From: an uncultured Candidatus Saccharibacteria bacterium
Lineage (GTDB): Bacteria; Patescibacteriota; Minisyncoccia; Phycocordibacterales; UBA9973
Reading direction: 5' to 3'
Assembly (NCBI GenBank): GCA_964646765.1
Contig: CAZYIA010000003.1
Location: 2,815 to 66,814, forward strand
Length of the DNA stretch: 64,000 bases
Shown here in pieces: positions 3,361 to 62,050 of this stretch. How positions within the stretch are numbered: position 1 is the stretch's first letter; each line of letters opens with the position of its first letter. The position numbers and the translations under genes were made by a program. The notes beneath the pieces are model-generated. The model ran no database searches and was not told the DNA's origin. It saw nothing but the letters and a program-made list of their open reading frames with translations.

Positions 3361-4050
3361 ATGACTCAATCTGCAGAAATCATCCGACAAGTTAGTGCTC
3401 TTTCTTACCTAGGTATTTTTGGGCTTTCATTACTTGCGAATGTTGTTATCCCAGTGCCTGAAGAAATCTCCCTATTGGCTATTGGCTACGTTATCGGCAT
3501 GGGGAAGATTGATCCATTTATTACCACAGCTATTGTTATTGCGGGGCTTTTGGTTAGTGATCTGGTAATCTTTGTTCTTGCTCGCGGAGGGAATAAACCG
3601 TTGTCATTCATCTATAATAAATTTTTTGCGCGCACCCTTTCTAAAGATCCGGACTTTGTAAAAAAACATGTAGAAAAATTTATTTTCTTCTCACGATTTC
3701 TTGTGCAGCTGCGGTTCCTTGGGCCATTTTTGGCCGGGAAAGAAAAAACGTCACTCCGTACTTTTTTAACCTACGAATTTGCTGCACTTTTTCTCTATGT
3801 TCCAATTCTCCTTGCTTTGGGTGATTATTTCCGCGACCGATTTGAAGCAGTCGTTAGTGACTTAGGGGCAGTGCGCAATATCATTCTTATTATTATCGGT
3901 ATTTTTCTTCTCCTCTCTGTTATGCGGGTGATTCGTCAGTTTTTCTTAGGAGATCTTCTCATTTCCCTCAAAAGCGAAAACGAAGAATATGAAAAAACCT
4001 GGATTCCAGGCCTTCTTCGTCGTAAAGAAGAAATGACCCAAGCAGAATAG
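3361..4050 (+). CDS. DedA/TVP38-family integral membrane protein
   Basis: Multi-TM protein with the VTT-type motif ANVVIPVPEEISLLAIGY. Confidence 0.6.
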   Translation: MTQSAEIIRQVSALSYLGIFGLSLLANVVIPVPEEISLLAIGYVIGMGKIDPFITTAIVIAGLLVSDLVIFVLARGGNKPLSFIYNKFFARTLSKDPDFVKKHVEKFIFFSRFLVQLRFLGPFLAGKEKTSLRTFLTYEFAALFLYVPILLALGDYFRDRFEAVVSDLGAVRNIILIIIGIFLLLSVMRVIRQFFLGDLLISLKSENEEYEKTWIPGLLRRKEEMTQAE

Positions 4051-4073
4051 GGAGAGTAGGGTATACTCTTCGT

Positions 4074-6464
4074 ATGGCTAAAGAGGCACGAAAAAAGCTG
4101 GTTTTACTTGACTCCCACGCGATTATTCACCGGGCATATCATGCCTTACCAGATTTTTCGTCGTCGAAAGGAGAGCCAACGGGGGCGCTTTACGGGCTCT
4201 CCACGATGCTTTTGCGTATCGTTACTGACTTAAAACCCGATTATATTATTGCTTGTTACGATCTTCCCCAGAAAACATTTCGTCATGAAGCATATGATGC
4301 CTATAAGGCAGGGAGAGCAAAAGCCGATGAAGCTCTTATCTCTCAGATCATTGAATCACGTCGCGTTTTCGAAGCCTTTGGTGTGCCTATTTATGATGCC
4401 GTTGGGTTTGAGGCCGATGACGTGCTTGGGACAATTGTTGAAATAAGTCGAAGCGAAAAAGATCTTGATATTATCATTGCTTCCGGAGACATGGACACAC
4501 TCCAGCTTGTTGAGGGTACGCGTGTATCTGTTTTTACGTTACGAAAGGGAATTAATGACACCGTGCTCTACGACGAAGAGAGCGTGCTTGAGCGTTTCGG
4601 TTTTAAGCCAAAACTCTTACCTGACTATAAAGGTCTTCGTGGAGATCCATCTGATAACATTATTGGGATCAAAGGTATTGGCGAGAAAACCGCGCAGATT
4701 TTAATTTCTAAAATTGGAACTATTGAGAACCTCTATAAAAAATTAAAAACTGAAAAAGGGAAAAAGGAAATTAAAGAATTAGGGCTTACTGATCGAGTGG
4801 TGAATCTTTTGGTTGAAGGTGAAGAAGAAGCGCTATTCTCAAAAACGCTTGCAACGATTCGTCGCGATGCCCCAATTGCGTTCACGGTACCAGAAAAAAC
4901 ATTTCGTCAGTCCATTATTCTCGCCAACATTGAAGCACTTTTTCGAGAACTCGAGTTTCGCTCGCTGGTGGATCGGTTGCGCAAAGTGTTTGCTGAACAA
5001 GCGGCAGTACAAACAACCATGTTCGAAGAGGCTAACATTTCATCTTTTGATCCAAAGCAGCTCAAAGAACTTACCATTGCAGTTTGGCTTTTAAATAGTG
5101 AGGAAGGGTTACCAACCCCAGAGGATGTCTTAAGGTATAAAAATGCAGCTACAGGAGAAAAAGCCGCTGAGCTTATTTTGGCTGATATTGAGAAAGCCGG
5201 GCTTAGCTATGTCTACAAAACAATTGAACTTCCTCTTATTCCAATAATTTCCAAGATGGAAGAACGTGGAATTGCAGTTGATGTTCAATTTCTTAAAGAG
5301 CTAGGTAAGGAGTACCATAAAAATCTCTCGGCTATTGAGAAAGAAATTTATCGTCATGCCGGGCGAGAATTTAACATCAACTCACCAAAACAGCTCGGTG
5401 AAGTTCTCTATGATGAACTTAAGCTAGGGGAGACGAAAGGTGTACGACTCAAAAAAACTGCTGGTGGTGCACGTTCAACACGCGAGAGTGAGCTCGAAAA
5501 ACTTCGTGAGGCACATCCAATTATCGACGCTATTCTTCGTTTCCGCGAAATTCAAAAACTTCTCTCAACCTATATTGATACTATCCCTGATTTAGTGGGA
5601 AGCGACGGACGTCTCCATGCAAAGTTTCATCAAGCCGGTACGACAACTGGTCGCTTTTCTTCAACTGATCCTAACCTCCAGAATATTCCCATTAAGAACG
5701 ATCTGGGGCGTCGCGTTCGTCGCGGATTCGTCGCGGCAAAAGGACACACACTGCTTTCATTCGACTATTCACAGATTGAACTTCGTATCGCAGCCCTTCT
5801 TTCACAGGATGAATATCTTTTGAAGGTATTTGAAGAAGGCCGGGATGTACATGCCGCGGTTGCTTCTCGAGTGTTTGGTGTTAAAGAAACAGATGTTACT
5901 CGCGAAATGCGCCGTCGCGCAAAGGTTATTAACTTCGGAATTCTCTATGGCATGGGAGTAACAGCCCTTCAACAAAATTTAGGTACTGATAGAAAAGAAG
6001 CTCAAGCTTTTTACGATAATTATTTTGCTGAATTTCCAACGATTCGTGGTTACCTTGATGGAGTACTCGAATTTGCTGAGGCGAAAGGTTTTACCGAAAC
6101 CCTTTTTGGTCGCCGTCGTTACTTTGCTGCTCTTAAATCTAAAATTCCCTTTATTAAGGCCGCAGCAGAGCGTACGGCTATCAATGCTCCAATTCAAGGA
6201 ACTGCTGCTGATGTGCTTAAAATTGCCATGCAGCGCGCCGAGCGTGAACTTGCCGCCCAGAAACTTTCTGACAAAGCCCACCTGCTTCTTCAGGTGCATG
6301 ACGAACTCATTTACGAAGTTGAAGACAGTGTTGTTCAAAAAGTGGAAAGCATTGTTGAGGAAGCAATGCAAAATGCTATTCCACCAGAATTTTTGAAAGG
6401 TAAAAAGCCAGTACCACTTGCTGTTGGTAAAGGGCAAGCTTCTAATTGGGAAGATCTAAAATAA
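4074..6464 (+). CDS. polA: DNA polymerase I (5'-3' exonuclease + polymerase domains)
   Basis: 796 aa. The N-terminal 5'-nuclease domain (LLDSHAIIHRAYHAL..) and the family-A polymerase motifs (RRRAKVINFGILYGMG, QVHDELIYEV) are present. Confidence 0.9.
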   Translation: MAKEARKKLVLLDSHAIIHRAYHALPDFSSSKGEPTGALYGLSTMLLRIVTDLKPDYIIACYDLPQKTFRHEAYDAYKAGRAKADEALISQIIESRRVFEAFGVPIYDAVGFEADDVLGTIVEISRSEKDLDIIIASGDMDTLQLVEGTRVSVFTLRKGINDTVLYDEESVLERFGFKPKLLPDYKGLRGDPSDNIIGIKGIGEKTAQILISKIGTIENLYKKLKTEKGKKEIKELGLTDRVVNLLVEGEEEALFSKTLATIRRDAPIAFTVPEKTFRQSIILANIEALFRELEFRSLVDRLRKVFAEQAAVQTTMFEEANISSFDPKQLKELTIAVWLLNSEEGLPTPEDVLRYKNAATGEKAAELILADIEKAGLSYVYKTIELPLIPIISKMEERGIAVDVQFLKELGKEYHKNLSAIEKEIYRHAGREFNINSPKQLGEVLYDELKLGETKGVRLKKTAGGARSTRESELEKLREAHPIIDAILRFREIQKLLSTYIDTIPDLVGSDGRLHAKFHQAGTTTGRFSSTDPNLQNIPIKNDLGRRVRRGFVAAKGHTLLSFDYSQIELRIAALLSQDEYLLKVFEEGRDVHAAVASRVFGVKETDVTREMRRRAKVINFGILYGMGVTALQQNLGTDRKEAQAFYDNYFAEFPTIRGYLDGVLEFAEAKGFTETLFGRRRYFAALKSKIPFIKAAAERTAINAPIQGTAADVLKIAMQRAERELAAQKLSDKAHLLLQVHDELIYEVEDSVVQKVESIVEEAMQNAIPPEFLKGKKPVPLAVGKGQASNWEDLK

Positions 6465-9929: not shown

Positions 9930-10652
9930 ATGCTTACCCTAATATATGGTACTGATGCAGTAAAACGCGCATCTGCTCGTGATGCTACGATTACGTTACT
10001 TCAAAAAAAATTTCCTGATCTTGAAGTAACTTTTCAAAATGCGCTTGATGCATCACGTGAACACCTTGAAAATCTTACTCAAGCAACAAATCTTTTTGGG
10101 GCACATCGCCTTGTTGTGCTTACTTCACTCTCCGAGCATGAAGAGGCTGGAAGTTTTTTTATCCCGCTTTTGAAAGAAGTAGGTGATCGCAGTGATGTCA
10201 CCGTACTCGTTGTTGAAGGAAAACTCACGAAAGATATTCTTTCGAAATATGAAAAGTATGCAGAGAGTGTGAGCGTGTATGACTTACCAAAAGAAAAAGC
10301 GGTCGAGAAGCGGAATCCATTTGCGCTTTCAGACGCCCTCTTTGCGCGTGACCGAAAACTTGCGTGGCAGTTGTATCGTGAAGCAATCGACAACGGAGCA
10401 GGGGAGGAAGAAATTGCAGGGCTTTTGTTTTGGGGATTAAAAGCACTTCTCTTAGCGGCAAAAGAAAATACAGCCACTGATGCAGGACTTCATCCGTTCG
10501 TGTTTGGAAAAGCAAAACGTGCACTTACAAAATGGCGAGAGGATGAACTTCAAAAAATTACTGGTGACCTCGTAGCGCTTGTACATGAATCACGCACTCG
10601 CTCTCTTGATCCGGAAATTTCTCTTGAGCAATTTATTTTGACTCGTGTTTAA
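9930..10652 (+). CDS. DNA polymerase III delta subunit-like protein (HolA-like, short form)
   Basis: 240 aa. The N-terminus LIYGTDAVKR and overall helical composition resemble clamp-loader delta, and there is no P-loop. The assignment is tentative. Confidence 0.35.
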   Translation: MLTLIYGTDAVKRASARDATITLLQKKFPDLEVTFQNALDASREHLENLTQATNLFGAHRLVVLTSLSEHEEAGSFFIPLLKEVGDRSDVTVLVVEGKLTKDILSKYEKYAESVSVYDLPKEKAVEKRNPFALSDALFARDRKLAWQLYREAIDNGAGEEEIAGLLFWGLKALLLAAKENTATDAGLHPFVFGKAKRALTKWREDELQKITGDLVALVHESRTRSLDPEISLEQFILTRV

Positions 10653-49219: not shown

Positions 49220-50134
49220 TTATACTCCCAGTGCTTCGCACAACAGCGCCATGCGGATATACAAGCCATTTTGTGGCTGGCGGAAGTAGGCGGCGCGCTT
49301 GTCGGCATCGATTGCGGTGTCGATTTCGTTTACTCGCGGTAGGGGGTGCATGATGATTGCGGTTGGTTTCATCAAGTCTAAATGAGGAGCTTTAAGGAGG
49401 AACATATCTTTCACTCGCTCGTAATCTTCTTTGTTTTCAAAACGTTCTTTTTGAACGCGCGTCATATATACAACATCAGCGGCTTTGAGCGCTTCGTCGA
49501 GATTTTCGGTTTCGGTAAATGAAACTCCTTTTTCATAAAGTTCGCTCGTTAATTCTTCTGGTACGCGAAGTTCTTTTGGCGAAACAAAGATAAATGAGTT
49601 GTTTGAATATTCAATAAGAAGAGGAACAAGGGAATGAAGTGTGCGGCTATTTTTTAGGTCGCCAACAAACACGACCGTTAAGTTTTCGAGCCGGCCTTGT
49701 TCTTTTTGAATGGTGTACAGATCAAGAAAACCTTGTGAAGGATGTTGGTTGGCGCCATCACCAGCGTTTAATACTGGTTTGGTTGCCACTTTTGCTGCTG
49801 CTTCGGCAGAACCAATTTTTGGATGGCGCATGACGATGGCGTCAGCATATGACGAGAGCATGCGCGCAGTGTCTTCGATGGTTTCGCCTTTAAATGCAGA
49901 AGAACTCTCGGCAGCATTTTCAACGGTGATGATTTGGCCGCCTAAGCGAAGCACAGCCGTTTCAAATGAGAGACGAGTGCGGGTTGAAGGCTCAAAGAAA
50001 ACTGAAGCGACAATTTTGCCTTTCAAAAGTTCAGGCAGCGTGCCGTTTGCGTGTTCAACTTCAAGCGCTTTTGCTCGAGCGAGAATGTTCTCGACGTCGC
50101 TTTTTGAAAACTGGCTGGTGGAGAGAATATGCAT
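49220..50134 (-). CDS. pyrB: Aspartate carbamoyltransferase catalytic subunit
   Basis: STRTR and HPLP motifs. 304 aa. Confidence 0.9.
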   Translation of the reverse strand: MHILSTSQFSKSDVENILARAKALEVEHANGTLPELLKGKIVASVFFEPSTRTRLSFETAVLRLGGQIITVENAAESSSAFKGETIEDTARMLSSYADAIVMRHPKIGSAEAAAKVATKPVLNAGDGANQHPSQGFLDLYTIQKEQGRLENLTVVFVGDLKNSRTLHSLVPLLIEYSNNSFIFVSPKELRVPEELTSELYEKGVSFTETENLDEALKAADVVYMTRVQKERFENKEDYERVKDMFLLKAPHLDLMKPTAIIMHPLPRVNEIDTAIDADKRAAYFRQPQNGLYIRMALLCEALGV

Positions 50135-50135
50135 G

Positions 50136-53100
50136 TTAGCTTACGTATTCTTTGTATGACTTAATTTCGAGATCATCGATAGAGTAGTTGGAGAGAGCTT
50201 TTACGAAGGCACGGGCGAGGTGAAGATCGGTGAAGAGGGGAATTTGGTTGTCGACAGCCGCGCGGCGAATCTGGAAACCATCGGTTGTTTTCTTACCTGC
50301 TTTTATGCGTCCGGTCTCACTTAAATTTACCACAAAGCCAACATTCTTGCCGTTTACAAGATCGAGGAAGTTTGGTGATGGCTCAGAAGCCTTGCGAACC
50401 ATATTACAAGCCACGCCTTGGCCTTTTAAGAAGTTTGCCGTGCCTTCGGTTGCTGAAATGTTATAGCCAAGGGTAACGAGCTGGCGGGCTGCTTCGATAA
50501 ATTTGGCTTTGTTGATTTCACCGCCCAGAGAAAGGAGAACATCTTTTTTACGATAGTCGAAAGTGTGCGCACTCATAATCGATTTCAAAAGTGCTTCGTC
50601 GTAGTCCTTGCCGAAACAAGCCACTTCGCCGGTTGATGACATTTCGACGCGGAGAATTGGGTCGGCACCCAAGAGGCGAGAGAAGGAAAACTGCGGTGAT
50701 TTTACGATCACGCTTCGTGGATATTCGTAGTCGTGCTTTTTAGCTTTGCCAAAGAAACTGTCGACAGCCATGCCTGGAAAGTTTACGTCCATAGCTTTTG
50801 AAAGCATGGGGAAGGTTCGAGATGCGCGAAGGTTCACTTCGATAACTGATGGCTTGTTATCTTTCACCAAGAACTGAATATTGAACGGGCCAGTGATCGA
50901 AAGTTCTTTAGCAATTTTTTTCGAGATATCGCGAATCTGAAATTCAGTTGAAGCGTACACACGTTGCGTAGGGAAGACGATCGTGGCGTCACCAGAGTGC
51001 ACACCAGCGTTTTCAACGTGTTCAGAAATTCCGTACACCATCAGTTCGCCGTTCTGGGCTACCGCATCAAACTCAAGTTCCTTAGCGTTCTCGACGAATT
51101 TCGAAATCGTTACTGGATGCTCTGGGCCAAGCACTGCTGCTTTGCCAATAAAGGCTTCAAGCTGTTCTTGGTTATAACAGACACTCATGGCCGCACCAGA
51201 GAGCACGTATGATGGACGAACGAGTACAGGGTAGCCAACAGCGTCAGTAAATTTTTTGGCTTCTTCTACCGTGCTGAAACTCTGCCACTTTGGCTGAAGA
51301 ATTTCGAGCTTATCGAGCATGGCCGAGAAAGCGTTACGATCTTCAGCGCGGTCGATGTTGGCGGCAGTTGTACCAAGAATAGGGAAGCCTTCTTTTGAAA
51401 GTTTCTTAGCGAGGTTGTTTGGACGCTGGCCACCCACTGAAATAATCAGGCCGCCAGAATGTTCGAACTCAAAAATGTCAGCAACGGTTTCAAATGAGAG
51501 GTTTTCGAAGTAGAGGCGATCAGAGATATCGTAGTCGGTTGAAACAGTTTCTGGATTACAGTTTACGATGACTGAAAGTTTTTTGTGGCGCTTAAGAGCG
51601 AGGGCTGCATTCACACATGACCAGTCGAATTCAACTGAAGAACCAATGTGGTATGGGCCAGAACCAAGCACGGTGATGGCGCTTTTACCAAGCGGCTTCA
51701 CATCATGGTGATTGCCGTGATAGGTGAGGTAGAGGTAGTTGGTTTTTGCTGGCACTTCGCCGGCGAGGGTATCGATTTGGAAAACGTTCGGCATGATGCC
51801 AAGTTTCTTACGGAGCTTTCGGACTTCGAATTCAGTTTTGTGGAGGAGAGCGCCGATTTTTTTATCAGAGAAACCAAGCTGTTTTAAGTTTGTGAGATTT
51901 TCTTTATCGAGTTTTTTAGTAACGAGCAGATCTTTTTCTGCTTCAACAATTGCCTGCACGCGGTAGAGGAACCATGGATCAACACCAGTGATTTTATAGA
52001 GCTCTTCGACTGACTTTCCGCGTTTCAAACTTTCGGCGATAGCAAAGAGTCGCTTCGGAGTTGGTGTTTCCAAAAACTTTTTCAGCGTTTCATCGCCAAA
52101 GCCGTTATCGGTTACGCTTTCAATCGCACCGCTTTGCATGCGCACCGCCTTTTGTAGTGCTTCTTCAAAGTTTCGGCCAATAGCCATTACTTCACCAACC
52201 GATTTCATTGCGCTACCAATTTTCTCATCAGCGCCAACAAATTTTTCCAAGTCCCAGCGTGGGAATTTAACCACCACATAGTCGAGGGCTGGCTCGAAGA
52301 AGCTTTGAGTAACTTGAGTGATTTTGTTTTTGATATCGAGGAGGCTGTAGCCAAGAGCGAGTTTTGCGGCAACGTAGGCGAGAGGGTAGCCCGTAGCTTT
52401 TGATGCAAGCGCTGAAGAGCGGGAGAGACGAGCGTTTACTTCGATAACATAGTAGTCGAGTTCGCCATTTTTTGGGTTTGGATTTACGGCGTACTGCACG
52501 TTACATTCGCCAACAATGCCGAGCGACTGCACTATCTTAATAGAAGCGAGGCGAAGGCCATGATATTCGTCGTTTGAAAGGGTCTGCGATGGAGCGATAA
52601 CAATTGAGTCGCCAGTGTGAATACCGAGCGGATCAAAGTTTTCCATGTTACATACCGTCACCGTATTGTTGAATGAATCACGTACCACTTCGTACTCAAG
52701 TTCTTTAAAGTGGTGAAGATACTTTTCAATAAGTACTTGTGGCGAAACTGCGAGCGCACCTTCTACAATTTCTTTGAGTTCTGCTTCTGTGTGAGCCACA
52801 CCTGACTTTTGGCCGCCGAGAGTAAATGCTGCGCGTACCATAACCGGCAAACCGATTTGAGTAGCCAGTTTTTGTGCCTCTACTAAAGTTGTAGCTGCCC
52901 CAGAAGGAGCAGTTGGAATACCGATAGCACGGAGGTGGTCAGCAAAGAGCTGGCGGTCTTCGGTAAGTTCAATGGAGTCAACCGGTGTCCCGAGTACTGC
53001 GACCCCATATTTTTTGAGAATGCCTTTTTCTCGAAGAGCTAAACCACAGTTAAGTGCTGTTTGGCCGCCGAATGAGAGCATGATGCCGTCCGGCTTTTCT

Positions 53101-53330
53101 TTAGCAATTACTTTTTCAACGAAATAGGTGTTCACTGGTAAAAAGTACACTTCGTCAGCAAGTTCTTTCGACGTTTGAAATGTCGCAATGTTTGGGTTGA
53201 TGAGAATACTTTTGATTCCTTCTTCTTTGAGCGCCTTGATTGCTTGTGAGCCCGAATAATCGAATTCGCCGGCTTCACCAATTTTAAGCGCGCCACTTCC
53301 AAGCACTAGAATTTTTTTGAATTTTTTCAT
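50136..53330 (-). CDS. carB: Carbamoyl-phosphate synthase large subunit
   Basis: 1064 aa. Duplicated ATP-grasp halves and an MGS-like C-terminus. 1-nt intergenic gaps to carA and pyrB. Confidence 0.95.
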   Translation of the reverse strand: MKKFKKILVLGSGALKIGEAGEFDYSGSQAIKALKEEGIKSILINPNIATFQTSKELADEVYFLPVNTYFVEKVIAKEKPDGIMLSFGGQTALNCGLALREKGILKKYGVAVLGTPVDSIELTEDRQLFADHLRAIGIPTAPSGAATTLVEAQKLATQIGLPVMVRAAFTLGGQKSGVAHTEAELKEIVEGALAVSPQVLIEKYLHHFKELEYEVVRDSFNNTVTVCNMENFDPLGIHTGDSIVIAPSQTLSNDEYHGLRLASIKIVQSLGIVGECNVQYAVNPNPKNGELDYYVIEVNARLSRSSALASKATGYPLAYVAAKLALGYSLLDIKNKITQVTQSFFEPALDYVVVKFPRWDLEKFVGADEKIGSAMKSVGEVMAIGRNFEEALQKAVRMQSGAIESVTDNGFGDETLKKFLETPTPKRLFAIAESLKRGKSVEELYKITGVDPWFLYRVQAIVEAEKDLLVTKKLDKENLTNLKQLGFSDKKIGALLHKTEFEVRKLRKKLGIMPNVFQIDTLAGEVPAKTNYLYLTYHGNHHDVKPLGKSAITVLGSGPYHIGSSVEFDWSCVNAALALKRHKKLSVIVNCNPETVSTDYDISDRLYFENLSFETVADIFEFEHSGGLIISVGGQRPNNLAKKLSKEGFPILGTTAANIDRAEDRNAFSAMLDKLEILQPKWQSFSTVEEAKKFTDAVGYPVLVRPSYVLSGAAMSVCYNQEQLEAFIGKAAVLGPEHPVTISKFVENAKELEFDAVAQNGELMVYGISEHVENAGVHSGDATIVFPTQRVYASTEFQIRDISKKIAKELSITGPFNIQFLVKDNKPSVIEVNLRASRTFPMLSKAMDVNFPGMAVDSFFGKAKKHDYEYPRSVIVKSPQFSFSRLLGADPILRVEMSSTGEVACFGKDYDEALLKSIMSAHTFDYRKKDVLLSLGGEINKAKFIEAARQLVTLGYNISATEGTANFLKGQGVACNMVRKASEPSPNFLDLVNGKNVGFVVNLSETGRIKAGKKTTDGFQIRRAAVDNQIPLFTDLHLARAFVKALSNYSIDDLEIKSYKEYVS

Positions 53331-53331
53331 C

Positions 53332-54411
53332 TTATTTCTTTGCGGACTTTTTAGCCGGAGCGACGAGGCCAGCTTTTTCTAAGAAGTAATCAAAGATCCA
53401 GTCAGTATCGAGTGGGCCAGGGGAGCTTTCAGGGTGGAACTGTACACTCATAAATGGAAGTTTTTCGTGAATGATTCCTTCGTTCGTGCCGTCGTTTCCG
53501 TTATAGAACCATTCTTTAAATCCTTTCGGAATTTTCTTTACTGCAAAGCCGTGGTTTTGGGTGGTGAGGTAGGCTTGCTTGGTTCCGGAGAGTACCGCTG
53601 GTTGGTTTTGGCTGCGGTGGCCGAATTTTAGTTTGTAGGTAGAGCCGCCAGACGCGAGTGCTAAAATTTGGTTACCAAGACAAATACCGAGGGTTGGAAT
53701 TTTCTTAGCCACAATCTTTTTTACGTTCGCAATTGTTGCTTTTACTTTCGTTGGATCACCAGGACCGTTTGAAATGAGTACTGCATCAACAGGGAATGGG
53801 AGTGCGGTGACGTCGGTATCCCAAGGAACGACAACCACTTTTAATCCGCGAGCGAGTAAACGGCGAACCATGTTGCGCTTTTCGCCACAGTCGATAACCA
53901 CAATTGTTTTTGCGCCGTTACCTTGCGAGACAATTTCTTTGGTTGAAACTTCAGCAGAAAGGTTACGAACGTTTGGATCTTCAAACGGAATGTTTTTTCC
54001 GCCTGCCTGAATTTTGCCAAGCATCACACCTTTAGTGCGGAGTTTTTGAGTAAGGCCGCGAGTGTCTTTTATTTCAAGCGCTGGAATACCTTCAGCTTTG
54101 AACCAATCAGAGAGAGTGCGGAGGGAAGCATGATGCGATGGTGTGCCCACATAGGAAGAAACGATGAGACCGGCAACTTGGATTTTTGAAGATTCCCAAC
54201 TTTCTGGTTTCGGTACGCCATAGTTTCCAACAAGTGGAAATGTCATAACCAAAATTTGCCCGCGGAATGATGGATCGGTTAACGCTTCGGGGTAGCCCAC
54301 CATACCGGTAGCAAATACCACTTCGCCCGCCATCGAAACATCGGCGCCGAAACTCATTCCTTCTAATGTTGTGCCGTCTTTTAAGACCAGCGTTCCTTTT
54401 TTAGTTGCCAT
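53332..54411 (-). CDS. carA: Carbamoyl-phosphate synthase small (glutamine amidotransferase) subunit
   Basis: GATase triad context (GICLGNQIL...HRSQNQP...FHPE). Confidence 0.9.
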   Translation of the reverse strand: MATKKGTLVLKDGTTLEGMSFGADVSMAGEVVFATGMVGYPEALTDPSFRGQILVMTFPLVGNYGVPKPESWESSKIQVAGLIVSSYVGTPSHHASLRTLSDWFKAEGIPALEIKDTRGLTQKLRTKGVMLGKIQAGGKNIPFEDPNVRNLSAEVSTKEIVSQGNGAKTIVVIDCGEKRNMVRRLLARGLKVVVVPWDTDVTALPFPVDAVLISNGPGDPTKVKATIANVKKIVAKKIPTLGICLGNQILALASGGSTYKLKFGHRSQNQPAVLSGTKQAYLTTQNHGFAVKKIPKGFKEWFYNGNDGTNEGIIHEKLPFMSVQFHPESSPGPLDTDWIFDYFLEKAGLVAPAKKSAKK

Positions 54412-55630
54412 ACACTCTTCCTTTAATTACTGTCATAACCTGACGACCAGGAAACTCCAGGCCCTCAAACGGCGACCAACCGCATTTGGTTTTTAAATGT
54501 GACCTCTCAATAACTTTTTCTCCGGTAATATCACGAATCGTTAGAGAACCAACATAGCCTTCCTCGATTTTTCCGTACTTTGTAGGGAGGAAATTATTCA
54601 AAAAGTTTCCGGGATTTTCGGCGCAGACGCGAGCAATATCTTCGGGAGTAAAACTATGTTCGCGCATGAGCCAGTTGGTGAACGGAGCGTAGGTGTCGAG
54701 ATGTGGCATTCCAGAAATCCCAGTTTGTTTTTCTTCGAGGGTGTGTGGTGCGTGATCGGTAGCGAGATAATCGATGCGGCCATCTTTGAGAGCGGCGATG
54801 AGGGCTAGGCGATTTTCTTTGGTTTGGCGAATTGGCGGATTAACTTGGAGTTTGCGGTGGAGTTCAGTGTCGAACATTGATGCATCAAAGTAGAGATGAT
54901 GCGGTGTTACTTCAACAGTGACATCAACGCCGCGCTTTTTTGCTTCGTTTATTTTTTCCACTGCTTCTATAGTTGAAGCGTGGCAGATTTTTCCGTGAAG
55001 TTCGTATTTTTCAATGAGAGCGATGGCGGTGTCGACGGCAGATGCTTCGGCTTCGGGTGGCCGCTTAGCTTCATGCGTGCGAGCGTTTTTGTGTTCGTCC
55101 ATAATTTTTGGGTCTTCGCAGTGGAAACTGACAAACTCGCCGCGATAATTTTCGAGCGCCTTTTCTAAATCTTCACGTGAAGTAAAGAACATGTCGCCGA
55201 TTGATTTTCCCATGAACACTTTGTAGGGAACTTTTTTTGAAAGTGGTTTGGTGTGGACACCGATCGCTGCGTATAACAGTACTTCGGCAATTGATTTTTT
55301 AGTGAGCAGTTCTTTTGCCGCGTAGGTTGCATCATCAGATGGGGGAATTGGGTTGTTTGGCATTTCAGCGTAGGCAACTACACCGCCATTTACTGCAGCG
55401 AGGCCGGCAGTTTTAAAATCCTCTTTATATTCTTGGGTGTGGCTCATGTCTTCACGAGCGTGGACGTGGAGATCGATGAAGCCCGGGAAGATCAGTTCGC
55501 TTGCGAGGGTAATGTCGGCGCTTCCAGTTGGCTCACTAATAGAAGTAATAAGGCCGGTTGCCGTATCGATTTCAATTCGGCAGCGTTTGACCCCTGTATT
55601 CAGTACAGCGTTTCCTTCGATACTAAACAT
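54401..55630 (-). CDS. pyrC: Dihydroorotase (amidohydrolase superfamily)
   Basis: Likely start at the internal MFSIEGNAV (55630). FPGFIDLHVHARE metal-binding motif. It overlaps the carA start, giving a pyrC-carA-carB-pyrB operon. Confidence 0.75.
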   Translation of the reverse strand: MFSIEGNAVLNTGVKRCRIEIDTATGLITSISEPTGSADITLASELIFPGFIDLHVHAREDMSHTQEYKEDFKTAGLAAVNGGVVAYAEMPNNPIPPSDDATYAAKELLTKKSIAEVLLYAAIGVHTKPLSKKVPYKVFMGKSIGDMFFTSREDLEKALENYRGEFVSFHCEDPKIMDEHKNARTHEAKRPPEAEASAVDTAIALIEKYELHGKICHASTIEAVEKINEAKKRGVDVTVEVTPHHLYFDASMFDTELHRKLQVNPPIRQTKENRLALIAALKDGRIDYLATDHAPHTLEEKQTGISGMPHLDTYAPFTNWLMREHSFTPEDIARVCAENPGNFLNNFLPTKYGKIEEGYVGSLTIRDITGEKVIERSHLKTKCGWSPFEGLEFPGRQVMTVIKGRVYGN

Positions 55631-55832
55631 ATATTTGGGACAAAAAAATAGCCCCCACAACGGGGACTTCCTCGATACAATCTGCGGAGCTCTTCGCCTC
55701 GGCATTACGACACATTGGGTACGATGATAGCATCTTTCGTTAGTATTGCAAGCAAAAGCAGGTTTTTATATATCTTTAAAATACATTGAAAAATAAGGGT
55801 TAAATTGGATATTTAGTAATCCCCATGCTACT

Positions 55833-56264
55833 ATGCATAGAGTGAAGTATCTCGGTATCGATTATGGCACCAAACGTATCGGCCTCGCCCTCTCGGACGA
55901 GAGCGGCACTTTAGCATTTCCGCACAGTGTTTTGCCCAATGCAATGGGTGTAACAGCAGCAATTGAAGATTTAATTCGAAGTGAAAAGATTGAAGGTATT
56001 GTGATGGGAGAATCTATCGCAGCAGACGGTAGTGAAAATCCAGTACAAGCCCAAGCAAAAAATTTTGCCGTAGCACTCGAGCGTCGTTTTGAGGTGCCGG
56101 TATATTTTGAAAAAGAATTTTTTACCTCAGCACACGCGCATGGCGGAAAAGGGAAAGAGTCTCTCCATGCTCGCCAAACAAAATTTAACGCGCCAGAAAA
56201 TTTAGATGCTTCTGCCGCCGCACTCATTCTTCAGCGGTATTTAGATAAACAGAAAAAGTCTTAG
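55833..56264 (+). CDS. ruvX: Holliday-junction-resolvase-like / pre-16S rRNA nuclease YqgF (RuvX)
   Basis: LGIDYGTKRIGLALSDESGTLAFP is the RNase H-fold YqgF signature. Confidence 0.8.
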   Translation: MHRVKYLGIDYGTKRIGLALSDESGTLAFPHSVLPNAMGVTAAIEDLIRSEKIEGIVMGESIAADGSENPVQAQAKNFAVALERRFEVPVYFEKEFFTSAHAHGGKGKESLHARQTKFNAPENLDASAAALILQRYLDKQKKS

Positions 56265-56266
56265 CT

Positions 56267-57964
56267 ATGGAAAATCGAAACTGCCAAAATTGTAAAAAGA
56301 ATTTCACAATTGAATCTCGTGATTTTAACTATTACGAGAAAATTGGTGTTCCAGCACCGTCATGGTGCCCACTCTGTCGTTTTATTCGCCGCACGGCGTT
56401 TGTGAACGGGTGGTCACTTTTTTGGCGAAACTGCGACAAGTGTTCAAAGCGCACGCTTTCGATGTATCCACCGGATCAAAAAATTACGGTGTACTGCCAA
56501 CCGTGTTGGTGGGGAGATAGTTGGGATGGAACCGAGTATGCGCAAGACTATGATCCGTCGAGGCCATTCTTAGAGCAGGTGAAAGAACTTTCAGAGAAGA
56601 CACCATTTTGCGCGCTCGAGACTACATACCTAACGCTCAAAGACTGCGAGTATTGTAATGCAATTGCTTACGGTAAAAACTGCATGCTCGCGACTTGGCT
56701 CGACTACTGCGAAAATGTCTGTTTTTCTTCATACTTAAATGGCAGTAAAGATATTTCAGACTGTCTTCGCATGCAGGAATCGGAACTCTGCTATGAATCA
56801 ATTGGCCAAACAAAAGGGTATCACGTTTTTTATTCAGAAGAGTGTGATGGTTGTACTGATGTATGGTTCTCCCGCAATCTCTATAGTTCGAGTAACTGTA
56901 TTGGCTGTGTAAATATGCGTGGTGCTTCGTACTGTATTTTTAATGAGAAATATACGAAAGAAGAATACGCGGAAAAATTGAAAGAGTTTAAATTACATAC
57001 TCGAGCGGGAATTCTCGCTTTTAAAGAAAAAGCGGAGGCGTTTTGGAAATCTCATCCGTATCGCGAGTACTCAGGAAATACCTTGAACGTAAACGTTACC
57101 GGAGAATATACCTACCAGTCAAAAAATTCTACCGACATGTACATTTCGACTGGCGCCGAAGATTGTGCGCACAGCCAATTTATTACGGTAGCACCAGCGC
57201 GCGACTGTACAGATTACTCGGGGTGGGGAAATGGTGCTGAACTTATTTATGAATCAGCAAACATTGGTGACAACGTGAACAATGTTCGATTTTCGGTCTA
57301 TTGTTTTCCAGATGTGCTGCAGACTGAATACTCAATGTGGGCGATTGCTGGAAAATATAATTTTGGTTGCGTAAATCTTAAAAGAAAACAGTATGCGATC
57401 TTGAACAAGGTTTATGATAAAGAAACTTATGAAAAACTTCGTGCCGAAATTATCGAAGATATGAAAAAGCGTCCATATGTAGATGTAACTGGCAAACAAT
57501 TTTTCTACGGTGAATTTTTCCCGCCGGAGTTTTCAAAGTTTGCATATAACACTTCGAACGCTTCTAAATATTTTTGGAAAACAAAAGAAGAAGTCGCTCT
57601 CATGGGTTCATTTTGGTACGACGAGGAACCGCAAAATATCGTAGCAACAATAACTGCTGATGCATTGCCAGAAACAATTGCCGAAGTGAGCGAGGCGATT
57701 ATGAAAGAAACTATTCAGTGCGCTACCTGTGATCGAAAATATCGTATTGCTCAACTTGAGCTTTCTATTCTCCAAAAGCTCTTAATGCCGATTCCGACGA
57801 GTTGCCCAAAGTGCCGTGAAGCGAGTCGCTTTAAAAAGATGAATATGCCAATACTTCGAGACTCAAGCTGTGCACATTGTGGTAAAGCCATTAAAACGGC
57901 GTTTCCAGCTGATACGGACAAAACTGTGTATTGTGTCTCTTGCTATCAGGCCACAGTGATATAA
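56267..57964 (+). CDS. Cys-rich multi-zinc-ribbon protein of unknown function (paralog 2 of 2; 565 aa)
   Basis: Starts 3 nt after the ruvX stop. It has the same length and architecture as 7686..9383: N-terminal ribbons (CQNCKKNF..YY..P..CPLCR ... CDKCSK..VYCQPCWW), conserved ESELCYE, and C-terminal ribbons (CATCDRKY.. CPKCR ... CAHCGK ... YCVSCY). About 30% identity to paralog 1. Confidence 0.8.
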   Translation: MENRNCQNCKKNFTIESRDFNYYEKIGVPAPSWCPLCRFIRRTAFVNGWSLFWRNCDKCSKRTLSMYPPDQKITVYCQPCWWGDSWDGTEYAQDYDPSRPFLEQVKELSEKTPFCALETTYLTLKDCEYCNAIAYGKNCMLATWLDYCENVCFSSYLNGSKDISDCLRMQESELCYESIGQTKGYHVFYSEECDGCTDVWFSRNLYSSSNCIGCVNMRGASYCIFNEKYTKEEYAEKLKEFKLHTRAGILAFKEKAEAFWKSHPYREYSGNTLNVNVTGEYTYQSKNSTDMYISTGAEDCAHSQFITVAPARDCTDYSGWGNGAELIYESANIGDNVNNVRFSVYCFPDVLQTEYSMWAIAGKYNFGCVNLKRKQYAILNKVYDKETYEKLRAEIIEDMKKRPYVDVTGKQFFYGEFFPPEFSKFAYNTSNASKYFWKTKEEVALMGSFWYDEEPQNIVATITADALPETIAEVSEAIMKETIQCATCDRKYRIAQLELSILQKLLMPIPTSCPKCREASRFKKMNMPILRDSSCAHCGKAIKTAFPADTDKTVYCVSCYQATVI

Positions 57965-58015
57965 TAGAGGAGTTACTAAAGGTCCTCTTTTATTAGCACT
58001 CACATATACATTTGT

Positions 58016-58270
58016 ATGATGATGCATAAAGGTCCAACAGCAAAAATTTGCTGGATCCTCGTTATTATTGGCGGGCTTAACTGGGGTCTTGTCGGTCTCG
58101 GTATGCTTATTGGCACCAACTTAAATGTGGTGAACCTTATCTTCGGCAGCATGCCGACGCTTGAGGCAATCATTTACCTCATTGTTGGTCTGTCTACCTT
58201 GTGTAAAATTTTTATGCACGGTAAGCACATGGAAGCTCCGATGGGGCAGCCAGGAATGGGCGCAAAGTAA
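58016..58270 (+). CDS. DUF378-family small membrane protein
   Basis: ICWILVIIGGLNWGLVGL..IIYLIVGLSTL is the DUF378 signature. Confidence 0.6.
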   Translation: MMMHKGPTAKICWILVIIGGLNWGLVGLGMLIGTNLNVVNLIFGSMPTLEAIIYLIVGLSTLCKIFMHGKHMEAPMGQPGMGAK

Positions 58271-58285
58271 ATATAAAGGTACTTC

Positions 58286-58319
58286 AAAAACACTCCGACA
58301 ATCTGTCGGAGTGTTTTTG
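58286..58319 (+). terminator. Rho-independent terminator
   Basis: aaaaacactccgaca-atc-tgtcggagtgttttt. Confidence 0.75.
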
Positions 58320-58343
58320 AATAAATAGTGTAAAATACCGACT

Positions 58344-59394: not shown

Positions 59395-60477
59395 ATGTCC
59401 GTGTCCTCCCTTAAAACATTTTTCCCAATACCATCGATCATTACGCCGCGTTCAGTTGGTTTTGATGTTTCTGATCAATCAATCAAGTTTGTGGAACTTG
59501 CTGAGCGTTCTTACGGACTCGACGTCATCCGCCACGGTGCAATTTCTATCCCCCAAGGGGTCATTATCTCTGGCAAGATCCAAGACACCGTTCGCTTTAC
59601 CGATATTTTGCAAACATTTCAAAAAAAAGAGCGCGTTAGTCGTGTACGCGTGTCGCTTCCTGAAGAGCAAGTATATCTTTTTGAAATTAGTATCCCGAAA
59701 GTTGAGCCGAAAGAAATTCCAGGAACTATTGAGTTGTCACTTGAGGAACATATTCCAATTAAAGCTTCCGAAGCAGTATTTGATTATTCGCTGATTCGAG
59801 AAACAGAAACAAATTTTGATCTTCAGGTAGCCGCACTTCCTGTTGGCGTAGCAGAAAGTTATGTTTCGGTCTTTCGTGATGCAGGACTTGATCCAATTTC
59901 ATTAGAGCTTGAAGCTCAAGCGGTGGCTCGAGCGGTAACGCAACGAGGGGAGAAAGTAACCGTATTGGTTATCGATTTTGGTGAAACACGAACTGGCATT
60001 TCGATTGTTGAAAATGGCTTGGTGCGGTTTACGACGACGCTTGAAATTGGAGGTTACGCTATTACCAAAACAATTGAAAAAATGTGCCAGTGTAATTTTG
60101 CTGATGCTGAGCGGATGAAGCGCACCATCGGTCTTTCACGCAAGCCTGAGCACGAAGAACTTTTTTCAACATTACTCCAAAGCATTGCCGTACTCCGTGA
60201 CGAAGTAAATAAACACTATCTCTATTGGCATACGCACAAAGATGAGCTTGGCGGGGAACACCAGAAAATTGCGAGTATTACGCTAGTAGGCGGTAATGCG
60301 AACATGCCTGGTCTACAAGAATATCTTGCAGCTTCTCTTAAGACAAAAGTAACGATTGCTAATCCTTGGATTAACATCACCGATCCTCATGTGCGAATTC
60401 CTTCTATTGAAAGTACTGACGCGCTTTCCTATGCCACGGCTCTTGGTCTTGCCTTAGGCGACGAATCATATGATTAA
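59395..60477 (+). CDS. pilM: Type IV pilus assembly ATPase-fold protein PilM
   Basis: Actin-like fold pattern (VGFDVSDQSIKFVEL...VIDFGETRTGISIVENG...VGGNANMPGLQEYL). Confidence 0.75.
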   Translation: MSVSSLKTFFPIPSIITPRSVGFDVSDQSIKFVELAERSYGLDVIRHGAISIPQGVIISGKIQDTVRFTDILQTFQKKERVSRVRVSLPEEQVYLFEISIPKVEPKEIPGTIELSLEEHIPIKASEAVFDYSLIRETETNFDLQVAALPVGVAESYVSVFRDAGLDPISLELEAQAVARAVTQRGEKVTVLVIDFGETRTGISIVENGLVRFTTTLEIGGYAITKTIEKMCQCNFADAERMKRTIGLSRKPEHEELFSTLLQSIAVLRDEVNKHYLYWHTHKDELGGEHQKIASITLVGGNANMPGLQEYLAASLKTKVTIANPWINITDPHVRIPSIESTDALSYATALGLALGDESYD

Positions 60478-61024
60478 CATGCTGCCACAACAAGAGCAGA
60501 GCAGGTTACGCCGAGCATACCAATTTCGGATCGCGGCTCTTGGGACAATGATGGCGTCGCTGGTGATGCTTGTTGCCGTTGCTCTCTTACTTCCAGCATA
60601 TATTCTTACGAGTATCCGCCGTCAAACAGTTGCGGATCGTTTAAAAATGTTGGACACACGAGAAATTGATTCTAAGGTTGGTTCACTCAATAGCATCATT
60701 ACTGATATTAATGACCGACTAAAAATTTTCAAAAAGCCTAATGAAATAATGGTGGTTTCATCCGATATGTTGCTCCCGGTGCTTGCACAAACAAAGAGCA
60801 CGCTTTTAGTAAATTCTTTTTCTACCGATCGAACACCGGAGGGGCTCTATACTATTTCAGTTGGTGGGGTGGCAAAAAATCGTGAAGCTCTTCTTATGTT
60901 TGAACGAGCACTACGTGCAACACCAACATTTACTGGGGTAGATGTTCCGATTTCTAACTTTGTACGAGGTTCAGATATTCTCTTTTCAATGCAATTTACC
61001 AAGACTAGTGAAACCAATAAGTAG
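60470..61024 (+). CDS. Type IV pilus assembly protein PilN
   Basis: MINMLPQQEQSRLRRAYQFRI plus a single TM. Overlaps pilM by 8 nt. Confidence 0.65.
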   Translation: MINMLPQQEQSRLRRAYQFRIAALGTMMASLVMLVAVALLLPAYILTSIRRQTVADRLKMLDTREIDSKVGSLNSIITDINDRLKIFKKPNEIMVVSSDMLLPVLAQTKSTLLVNSFSTDRTPEGLYTISVGGVAKNREALLMFERALRATPTFTGVDVPISNFVRGSDILFSMQFTKTSETNK

Positions 61025-61025
61025 T

Positions 61026-61727
61026 ATGCGAGAATTACGAAAAAGCACGACGCTCTTTATCGCAAGTCTCATCGGATTCTTGGCTCTTTCGGGTATCTAT
61101 ACTTTTATTTTTCTTGACCTTCGAGATAGAAACGCTGCTATTCTCATGATGCACCAGGATCTTTTAGAAAAAGAACATCAGGCAAAAGAACGTTTAGAGC
61201 TTGAGCGAACCATCATCACTACCGATGCTGATCGTCAAACGCTTCAGTCCTACTTTGTTTCCGGAGATAAAGCCGTGGCGTTTCTTGAAACCCTTGAATC
61301 TTACGGAAAAACAGCGGGGACGGCTTTTGAAATTCAAACAGTAGATATTATTAACCCTACAACCCAGACAACAGCTACGTCTCAACCTCAAGGAGATGCT
61401 ACTGATACGAATCAGCCAACAACTACGGTGAAGCCAAGTAACGATGAGCACCCATCATTAGTATTTACTGTTCATGCGTTGGGCCGATTTGAAGATATTT
61501 ATCAGCTTTTGCTTCTGTTAGAAAACGCACCATACGAATTTGAGTTTGAGAAAGTAACCCTACACCATCTTGATTTGAGTAAGAACATCTCTCCAACCGC
61601 TAAGATTGAAGAGGTACTGCCTAAGATGGCTAACATTGAGCGTATTAACCCGGCAAGTATTCTTTACTTATGGGATGCAACATTTACGATTAAACTTCTT
61701 ACATTTACCCCAACGTCACAAGAGTAG
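61026..61727 (+). CDS. PilO-like pilus assembly protein
   Basis: ATG at 61026, 2 nt after the pilN stop. N-terminal TM plus a coiled-coil (LLEKEHQAKERLELER). Confidence 0.5.
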   Translation: MRELRKSTTLFIASLIGFLALSGIYTFIFLDLRDRNAAILMMHQDLLEKEHQAKERLELERTIITTDADRQTLQSYFVSGDKAVAFLETLESYGKTAGTAFEIQTVDIINPTTQTTATSQPQGDATDTNQPTTTVKPSNDEHPSLVFTVHALGRFEDIYQLLLLLENAPYEFEFEKVTLHHLDLSKNISPTAKIEEVLPKMANIERINPASILYLWDATFTIKLLTFTPTSQE

Positions 61728-61729
61728 CT

Positions 61730-62050
61730 ATGGATAAACTCAAACACATTTTTGCGCATCATAAACGAACACCGAAGTTTTCGAAGCCGTTTGAGCATTC
61801 TCCGGTACGCATTTGGAAAATTTTTCTCATTGCAACAACACTACTCTCGATTGGAGCTGTGATTGCATCTTGGTTTTTCTTCCGGACTCTTACAACCGAT
61901 GCGGTGTTTGATTCAGACGTACAAGGATCTTCGGGTGAACTTATTCAACACAGTAAATTAGAAACAGTGCTTTCCCACTATAAAGATAAGACAGAAAAGT
62001 TTAAACAATACTCAGAAGAGAAACCGGTGATTAAAGATCCGAGTATATAG
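61730..62050 (+). CDS. Small hypothetical membrane protein (pilus-cluster associated)
   Basis: 106 aa, one TM. Immediately follows the PilO-like gene. Confidence 0.4.
   Translation: MDKLKHIFAHHKRTPKFSKPFEHSPVRIWKIFLIATTLLSIGAVIASWFFFRTLTTDAVFDSDVQGSSGELIQHSKLETVLSHYKDKTEKFKQYSEEKPVIKDPSI

Follow-up and report, generated by a model that had tools for sequence, protein, structure and literature searches.

Gene Content of the Locus

The gene under study encodes a cysteine-rich protein and is located directly behind ruvX (yqgF) in a 64,000-nucleotide (nt) stretch of the contig CAZYIA010000003.1 (assembly GCA_964646765.1). This whole stretch is referred to as the window, and coordinates are positions in it unless another locus is named. 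In this genome of Paceibacteria (Candidate Phyla Radiation, CPR/Patescibacteria), ruvX, the gene of the cysteine-rich protein and the gene of a small DUF378 membrane protein form a compact co-directional unit with a strong terminal hairpin (Table 1). The cysteine-rich protein was designated paralog 2 (P2), its relative encoded elsewhere in the window was designated paralog 1 (P1), and CYS stands for any gene of their family.

The first gene of the unit was attributed to ruvX, as in the first-pass annotation of the locus, by a match to Pfam PF03652 (100.7 bits with a cutoff of 29.2, E 1.1e-28, profile positions 2–133 of 134) and to TIGR00250 (67.1 bits with a cutoff of 43.25). The same annotation had placed the P2 start right behind the ruvX stop, and this is the case: the ATG begins at the third base after the stop codon, behind a 2-nt spacer. 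The DUF378 gene reported downstream of P2 was recovered as a match to PF04070, and the strong terminator behind it as an 18-bp hairpin with a z-score of −9.3. This hairpin was not flagged by a simple terminator scan because its T-run lies partly within the 3′ arm.

Close spacing is common in the window: 19 of 48 same-strand neighbor pairs are separated by no more than 5 nt, gaps have a median of 9 nt, and the 2-nt gap between ruvX and P2 is no more than chance gives there. The divergent intergenic region upstream of ruvX contains five promoter-like sites, compared with 6.0 ± 2.5 in shuffles; since this number is no higher than in the shuffles, the candidate site listed in Table 1 is no evidence of function. 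Inside ruvX, the + strand showed no promoter-like site, and the only terminator-like element was a single weak 5-bp stem (56081–56097); the site counts of the region were within the shuffle expectation. The two genes therefore share a strand and a gap of a few nucleotides with no convincing promoter or terminator between them, a usual operon criterion that is non-specific here. Co-transcription of ruvX and P2 is plausible, judging from the shared strand and the 2-nt gap. No RNA element was found at the locus with Rfam and ARAGORN, and the window holds only five tRNA genes.

Table 1. Positions of the discussed features in the window (residue numbers are those of P2; aa, amino acids; pI, isoelectric point; dG, folding free energy)
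Feature	Position	Strand	Details
Candidate promoter-like site	55786–55813	+	TTGAAA-16-GATATT; 9/12 positions matched; in the 127-nt pyrC/ruvX divergent intergenic region
ruvX/yqgF, first gene of the unit	55833–56264	+	143 aa; Pfam and NCBIfam matches
ruvX–P2 junction	56262–56269	+	TAG (56262–56264), CT, ATG; 2-nt spacer, read from the sequence
P2	56267–57964	+	565 aa; soluble Cys-rich protein (33 Cys, pI 5.7)
N-terminal module, two predicted zinc sites (residues 1–86)	56267–56524	+	C6-x2-C9-x24-C34-x2-C37; C56-x2-C59-x17-C77-x2-C80; net charge +6
Mid-A (residues 95–245)	56549–57001	+	Predicted narrow beta-solenoid, then helical hairpin; 12-residue coils, 13 Cys; acidic
Mid-B (residues 246–402)	57002–57472	+	Predicted second solenoid and helix unit; 4 Cys in P2
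Acidic linker (residues 403–478)	57473–57700	+	YGEFFPxxxSPFxYN(E/T), best-conserved non-Cys motif of the family
C-terminal module, two predicted zinc sites (residues 479–565)	57701–57961	+	C485-x2-C488-x24-C513-x2-C516; C535-x2-C538-x17-C556-x2-C559; net charge +7
Weak hairpin and T-run straight after the P2 stop	57966–57993	+	dG −10.2 kcal/mol, z −2.0; possible partial terminator
DUF378 small membrane protein, last gene of the unit	58016–58270	+	84 aa; Pfam PF04070, 49.1 bits with a cutoff of 25, E 5e-13
Perfect 18-bp hairpin terminator closing the unit	58283–58321	+	dG −26.8 kcal/mol, z −9.3; equaled by 0/200 shuffles
P1	7686–9383	+	565 aa; same architecture as P2, separate conserved orthogroup
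TrmB-family helix-turn-helix (HTH) regulator, divergent from P1	6516–7313	−	Pfam TrmB, E 1.1e-16

Synteny Around ruvX and P2

Gene order was compared from both sides of the junction. On the ruvX side, the contexts of the closest relatives were collected via a RuvX search and included 6 further genomes of the window's own clade (RuvX 63–87% identical). In all six, ruvX has an array of family genes on its downstream side; for one of them, the contig P0002, the first gene was tentatively assigned to the family from its size and the absence of Pfam matches. The array directly adjoins ruvX in 4/6 genomes (gap of 2–14 nt) and is separated from it by one gene in the other two. The ruvX-adjacent paralog varies. 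It is P2 in the window, whereas in L169/170 (RuvX 87%) a 571-aa paralog with 39% identity to P2 follows ruvX after 2 nt and precedes a P2-like gene (51%) and the SIMPL, tRNA_bind and VTT genes; here ruvX has the same divergent pyrC-carA-carB genes upstream. In L171–L176 the position belongs to a third subfamily, P3, whose members are 66–71% identical to each other and 32–35% identical to P2. P3 follows ruvX after 14 nt in L171/172 (RuvX 76%) and after 6 nt in L174/175 (63%), where it precedes a 41%-identical paralog, CutA1 and another paralog; in L173 (69%) and L176 (68%) one gene intervenes, and L176 also contains a CYS-DUF378-CYS group. On the P0002 contig, which carries a P2 ortholog with 84% identity to the P2 of the window, ruvX is followed after 2 nt by a 563-aa gene, a 284-aa gene, the P2 ortholog, DUF378, a 583-aa gene and tRNA_bind. 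Two genes thus separate ruvX from the P2 ortholog there, and the genes of a pseudouridine synthase and rplS lie further on, directly adjacent to each other. Across the sampled genomes of this clade, the slot behind ruvX is thus filled by the family, though not by one and the same paralog.

This arrangement has a limit. The adjacency of ruvX and a family gene was absent at RuvX identities of 55% or less. At L177 (RuvX 55%, 10.4 kb around ruvX) the order is ruvX-pilM...synthase-rplS with no family gene in either slot, so the presence of the family in the ruvX–rplS block is not universal.

The P2 side was covered by two sets of loci. The first contained 80 loci from species-representative genomes with P2 orthologs 54–77% identical to P2, in which open reading frames (ORFs) were called, clustered and annotated; the upstream neighbor was counted in 76 loci and the distance to ruvX in the 51 with enough flank. 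The second contained 80 metagenome loci that partly overlap the first set (upstream n = 70, downstream n = 61). It was found that ruvX is never directly upstream of a P2 ortholog in these other lineages (0/76 genome loci, 0/70 metagenome loci). The upstream gene encodes an RluA-family pseudouridine synthase in 41/76 genome loci, with a gap of exactly 4 nt in 24 of these, and another family paralog in 11/76, while the downstream gene is rplS (bL19) in 38/76. The metagenome loci gave a similar picture (synthase upstream in 33/70, rplS downstream in 44/61), and the pattern persists to 45% identity.

In many loci these genes are part of one collinear string, ruvX-(tRNA_bind)-pilM-pilN-like-pilO-like-small transmembrane protein-synthase-CYS-rplS, so that ruvX lies 3.6–4.7 kb upstream of the P2 ortholog in 19/51 genome loci and in 10 metagenome loci. 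The mean pairwise identity in this syntenic clade is 63% for ruvX, 65% for pilM, 64% for CYS, 70% for the synthase and 73% for L19. Since all these genes are similar in identity, the conserved order reflects the general collinearity of a moderately shallow clade and not a dedicated operon. The idea that P2 is unusually conserved was likewise rejected, as it evolves at the pace of its neighbors in this clade. Other contexts of P2 orthologs are thyA-CYS-folA, scpA-scpB-CYS-mraY, xerC-xth-CYS and a position beside a convergent RNase Y gene.

The first-pass annotation had suggested checking whether the placement behind ruvX is kept in relatives. At the level of the family it is kept in the window's clade, and the P2-centered loci, which taken alone had suggested that the adjacency is not conserved at all, were corrected in this respect by the search from the ruvX side. 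At the level of P2 orthologs in other lineages it is not kept. Because the adjoining paralog differs among relatives and the distant counterparts of P2 sit elsewhere, the ruvX adjacency says little about the function of P2.

Several further features of these loci were recorded. A DUF378 gene recurs directly behind or inside family arrays (P0002 contig; L176, 5413–5718; L156; L158), and one DUF378-adjoining paralog is only 43% identical to P2. In L087 (4811–8230) and L088 (2137–5556) thyA and folA enclose a P2 ortholog with 74% identity, leaving gaps of 5 and 10 nt, and genes of a dCMP deaminase and an ITPase-like NTPase are close by; thyA is also upstream of the P2 ortholog in L001, L002, L018 and L089. 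The window itself contains, at 59395–62050, pilM followed by ORFs without a Pfam match that were read as pilN-like (60470–61024) and pilO-like (60942–61727), with 83 nt shared by the called frames, and by a 106-aa ORF. This string keeps its order downstream of ruvX in many relatives. Divergent from ruvX, on the − strand, lies a complete-looking block for de novo pyrimidine synthesis, pyrB-carB-carA-pyrC (49220–55705), in which pyrB and pyrC pass the NCBIfam cutoffs; its carB-carA-pyrC part is likewise divergent from ruvX in L169/L170 and on the P0002 contig. Few CPR bacteria synthesize nucleotides de novo. In L171 (72–2864), bAvd and reverse transcriptase genes, resembling components of a diversity-generating retroelement, and a large serine recombinase gene were found 2–5 kb upstream of ruvX.

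Protein Family and Paralog 1

A search in a 90%-clustered collection revealed 2,550 homologs of P2. The top 120 matches are 500–600 aa long (most of them about 565 aa) and 58–100% identical to P2. All homologs are unnamed or annotated as hypothetical, and the named sources are Paceibacterota, Nomurabacteria, Minisyncoccia and Patescibacteria. A profile search against 1.84 billion representatives clustered at 50% identity gave 4,710 clusters at E < 1e-3, 3,376 at E < 1e-10 and 1,895 at E < 1e-30. Almost every one is 545–600 aa long and matched end to end. P2 is thus a paralog in a very large family of uniform build that is functionally uncharacterized. Only one partial match to the family was found among 2.9 million viral contigs, and the PADLOC anti-phage defense models gave no match at E ≤ 1 for P1 or P2. 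One member, P0359 (731 aa), has a GNAT acetyltransferase domain (residues 42–140) N-terminal to a full-length family protein; this is a single instance and possibly a gene-calling artifact. At least six family genes lie in tandem in L012 (2414–13924), a locus from a metagenome-assembled genome of Staskawiczbacteria, and one of them is 62% identical to the P1 of the window.

P1 and P2 share 32% identity over the full length (E 3e-93), and the P1 orthogroup is better conserved than that of P2 (top 120 matches 66–93% identical). In the window, P1 is flanked by polA (4074–6464), the divergent TrmB-family regulator, a PEMT/ICMT-like membrane methyltransferase gene and a holA-like gene (9930–10652). 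The polA and holA-like genes are thus present as first described, but neither is kept as a neighbor among P1 orthologs. The only conserved neighbor of these orthologs is the TrmB regulator, which is also present in L081 and L082, while in L083/L084 a 274-aa gene without a Pfam match occupies its position beside the P1 ortholog.

TrmB-family HTH regulators of about 250–270 aa adjoin family genes across the paralog subfamilies, mostly in divergent orientation (L081, 3396–4169; L082, 3240–4022; L086, 1971–2714; L173, 9758–10492). Their Pfam match covers the N-terminal HTH only, and about 180 C-terminal residues have no annotation. Genes of VirD4/TraG-like soluble ATPases (Pfam T4SS-DNA_transf, E 2.6e-6; DUF87/HerA, E 1.7e-5) were also found near family genes in L047 (c15 at 3755–5290), L065, L012, L016 and L050. 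In L047 and L065 the two kinds of gene alternate (CYS-ATPase-CYS-ATPase), and in L012 and L050 an ATPase gene adjoins a family gene.

Predicted Zinc Modules

The four zinc ribbons per protein named in the first-pass annotation correspond to four CxxC...CxxC sites of P2 with co-varying ligands, two in each terminal module (Table 1). The N-terminal module is homologous to the C-terminal one (BLASTP E 2e-14; hhalign probability 99.3%, E 6e-21). Covariation was measured as phi in 139 diverse family members; the values were 0.99–1.0 for C59/C77/C80 and 0.75–0.94 for C488/C513/C516, and at least 96% of sequences keep the two outer sites. All-or-none loss of ligands, as seen in the family alignment, is the signature of real four-ligand metal sites, and we infer that zinc probably occupies the four predicted sites of P2. 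Roughly a quarter to half of the family clusters lack the two inner sites (residues 56–80 and 485–516 of P2), each of which is lost as a unit, and many C-terminal modules carry an inserted Cys/His-rich segment instead (C-x-C...H-x-H...C).

Residues 533–562 of P2 match Pfam zf_Tbcl_2 (PF23477; 30.2 bits with a cutoff of 27), and the NCBIfam model TIGR04272 gave 24.7 bits, below its cutoff of 36. A profile match at the N-terminal x17 site was obtained only in other family members and was below the cutoff. The related domain zf_Tbcl (PF13451), whose first-knuckle pattern is CxxC-x24-CxxC with an F.I...D..FY.K..P.P motif, gave no match in P2 or P1 at E < 0.01. Family members other than P2 match zf_Tbcl with their first zinc site, for instance P0320 with residues 5–42 (32.5 bits, cutoff 24, E 8.5e-8), and zf_Tbcl_2 with their second; some P1 orthologs have a precomputed PF13451 match. 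The CxxC-x17-CxxC domain type was shown by inductively coupled plasma mass spectrometry to bind zinc in purified small proteins of Methanosarcina mazei (PMC12704099); apart from this, no literature on the family or on PF13451 and PF23477 was found.

Predicted Core Fold and Overall Architecture

The part between the zinc modules consists of two related halves, as residues 101–245 are homologous to residues 252–398 (hhalign probability 97.7%, E 2e-12). AlphaFold2 modeling with the 139 diverse sequences resulted in a confident model (predicted local distance difference test, pLDDT, 91.5; predicted template modeling score 0.92), which superseded a poor one based on 20 close sequences (pLDDT 63, core below 50). 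The predicted strands of Mid-A are located at residues 185–188, 197–200, 209–212 and 221–224. According to the model, two homologous helix-capped solenoids follow the N-terminal zinc module and are joined to the C-terminal one by a linker with a conserved aromatic motif. Both zinc modules are mildly basic; the acidic parts are Mid-A and the linker, and P2 as a whole has a pI of 5.7. In the linker, G415, F417, P419, S423, Y427, N428, G447 and W450 are each conserved in at least 90% of sequences.

Cysteines of Mid-A occupy strictly every third position, facing inward, with a hydrophobic super-period of 12. Most members contain a CxxCxxCxxC coil at positions 205, 208, 211 and 214 (Cys frequencies 0.76–0.94), and the family median is 37 cysteines, compared with 33 in P2. 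P2 has other residues at several of these ladder positions (L205, S208, V151, I163 and S178). The core cysteines vary independently of each other, with all pairwise phi values below 0.45. Given the lack of covariation and the frequent V, I, L or S in P2, they are best regarded as packing residues of a very narrow solenoid and not as a metal or disulfide ladder.

No Pfam match was found in the central 388 residues of P2 at E ≤ 10, and NCBIfam gave only sub-threshold zinc-ribbon matches. Sequence searches of the PDB with the single sequence, the zinc-module profile and the core profile yielded nothing beyond LIM half-sites (E ≥ 1e-3). Foldseek comparison with the PDB and BFVD gave no match at E < 1e-3; the best matches were left-handed beta-helix enzymes (E ≥ 4e-3, template modeling (TM) score < 0.1). 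In these Pfam, PDB and Foldseek searches no nucleic-acid-binding or catalytic fold was recognized in P2. A ZPR1-like architecture, which we take to be a duplicated set of zinc finger, beta-helix and helical hairpin, was considered and rejected, as ZPR1 was absent from the top 50 listed Foldseek PDB matches and its domain order differs.

Possible Function of P2

On balance we lean slightly towards the reading that P2 is a family paralog in a clade-specific ruvX array and serves as a binding scaffold by means of its zinc modules. The array downstream of ruvX would gain and lose members, and P2 would abut ruvX because the array of the window genome has shrunk to P2 (plus DUF378). P2 itself would be non-enzymatic: the terminal zinc modules would grip a macromolecular partner, the rigid twin solenoid would set their spacing, and different paralogs would serve different partners. 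A scaffold is favored because no catalytic signature was seen and the termini, the sole basic parts of the protein, are of the treble-clef/zinc-ribbon types that usually mediate macromolecular contacts. As for the partner, RNA or an RNA–protein complex of the translation apparatus comes to mind first, a doubtful choice, with a protein as the alternative. Recurrent neighbors of the family lean towards RNA, namely RuvX/YqgF, the pseudouridine synthase, bL19, a CsaA-like tRNA-binding protein, RNase Y and the CCA-adding enzyme.

A number of observations weigh against this reading or parts of it. The reduced genomes of such bacteria are dominated by information-processing genes, which weakens the lean towards RNA, and other contexts exist (thyA/folA, scpAB/mraY). 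The whole of P2 is acidic, unlike typical RNA-binding or ribosomal proteins. Many well-conserved paralogs are also typical of enzyme families with distinct substrates, and the near-invariant residues D84, D96, Q104, D165, N226, D316, N380, K381, S423 and N428 could form an unrecognized active site. TrmB-type regulators and VirD4-like ATPases beside some paralogs fit a constitutive translation factor poorly. The DNA/RNA-related role proposed in the first-pass annotation may hold as far as the mildly basic zinc modules and the recurrent genes of RNA enzymes and ribosomal proteins go, but P2 as a whole has an acidic pI and no nucleic-acid-binding or catalytic fold was recognized in it. The first-pass interpretation was partly supported.

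It is unlikely that P2 is a co-translated partner of RuvX/YqgF acting in pre-16S rRNA processing or in DNA repair/recombination. Such a role would suit the 2-nt junction, the family gene behind ruvX in all sampled genomes of the clade (for P0002 as assigned above), the position of P2 orthologs elsewhere beside an RluA-family synthase and rplS, and the basic zinc modules; CPR bacteria also retain only about half of the usual ribosome-biogenesis factors, which leaves room for lineage-specific ones (PMC12641178). The paralog next to ruvX, however, differs between genomes, P2 orthologs outside the clade never follow ruvX, and in L177, where ruvX, the synthase and rplS are all present, no family gene lies within 10 kb. 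Short gaps are usual in this genome, and the conserved nine-gene string is wholly collinear and mixes pilM/N/O-like and RNA genes, which indicates clade-wide collinearity. The thyA-folA, scpAB-mraY and xerC-xth contexts also argue against a RuvX partner.

Another reading, in which the family comprises Paceibacteria-specific assembly or escort factors for the translation apparatus that offset the halved ribosome-biogenesis repertoire, seems to us quite improbable. The zinc modules would then hold rRNA, tRNA or a ribosomal protein for a partner enzyme, which would account for two settings of the family genes, tightly packed behind ruvX/yqgF in one clade and placed between an RluA/RluD-like synthase and rplS in another.

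Equally improbable is that the family consists of unrecognized enzymes, for example of RNA or protein modification, with one substrate per paralog. No Pfam, NCBIfam or PDB sequence match extends beyond the zinc knuckles, no nucleotide- or cofactor-binding motif was noticed by eye (no motif scan was run), and the predicted narrow beta-solenoid has only a very weak likeness to left-handed beta-helix proteins. These points stand against the several well-conserved orthogroups per genome (P1 matches 66–93%, P2 matches 58–100%), the near-invariant polar and aromatic residues that persist in clusters only 30–47% identical to P2, the fusion of P0359 to a GNAT acetyltransferase and the tight coupling to the pseudouridine synthase in 41 loci, with the 4-nt gap in 24.

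Tandem arrays with paralog turnover (at least six copies in L012), VirD4/TraG-like ATPase genes that alternate with or adjoin family genes and dedicated TrmB-type regulators beside several paralogs would be expected of a polymorphic conflict or host-interaction system of episymbionts, that is, effectors, immunity proteins or substrates of type IV coupling ATPases. We nevertheless give this explanation little credence. P2 orthologs lie inside housekeeping operons and evolve at the rate of ruvX, pilM, L19 and the pseudouridine synthase; inspection of P2 by eye (no predictor was run) showed neither a transmembrane segment nor a signal peptide at the N-terminus; and there was no PADLOC match and a single partial match among the viral contigs. 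A metal/Fe-S or disulfide stack in the solenoid, making the protein a metal store or a redox/electron-transfer element, is hardly credible despite the number and regular spacing of cysteines and the CxxCxxCxxC coil of most members, since the covariation test rejected it (phi < 0.45 for core pairs vs. 0.75–1.0 at true zinc sites), P2 has L205 and S208 in that very coil and V151, I163 and S178 elsewhere, and Mid-B of P2 keeps only 4 Cys.

Few uncultured bacteria of groundwater and sediments are as abundant as the Paceibacteria, a group in which most conserved lineage-specific proteins lack an assigned role. The present family comprises thousands of clusters, with several paralogs per genome, a rigid architecture, a confidently predicted fold without a solved relative and a location within housekeeping operons; its role, once known, would fill a gap in how reduced cells handle RNA, protein or metals. 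The locus also calls for caution with compact genomes: 2-nt junctions and nucleic-acid-handling neighbors are the background expectation there, and only synteny measured across lineages and paralogs is informative.

Comparison with Known Systems

The core and the overall architecture of P2 have no described counterpart in the libraries searched, and the family is present in databases only as hypothetical proteins. RuvX/YqgF shares neither sequence nor fold with P2, and there is nothing unusual about the ruvX–P2 junction. The left-handed beta-helix enzymes (GlmU, LpxA, LpxD and gamma-carbonic anhydrase) have stacked short-strand coils, as in the predicted core of P2; they differ in having 18-residue coils and in being trimeric acyltransferases, and their Foldseek matches to P2 are not significant. 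The beetle antifreeze protein TmAFP is a 12-residue Cys-rich beta-helix. The 12-residue coil of the P2 family, with an inward residue (often Cys) at every third position, presumably resembles the TmAFP repeat, although TmAFP is secreted and disulfide-bonded, whereas the core cysteines of the P2 family show no pairwise covariation.

Other likenesses concern the zinc modules. The x17 knuckle of P2 resembles one half-site of the LIM domains, which are double-zinc protein-binding modules (CRP1, PINCH; the module profile gave E 1e-3 and the single sequence E 0.025). The match is below family thresholds and covers 29 residues only, and the ligand pattern and spacing differ, so that this is an analogy at most. 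The zinc knuckles themselves are described, though functionally unstudied, Pfam domains. Proteins with the treble-clef domains zf_Tbcl_2/TIGR04272 and zf_Tbcl are small and single-domain, whereas in P2 four knuckles cap a core of about 390 residues matching no family; despite this difference in build, the second site of both P2 modules has exactly their CxxC-x17-CxxC spacing.

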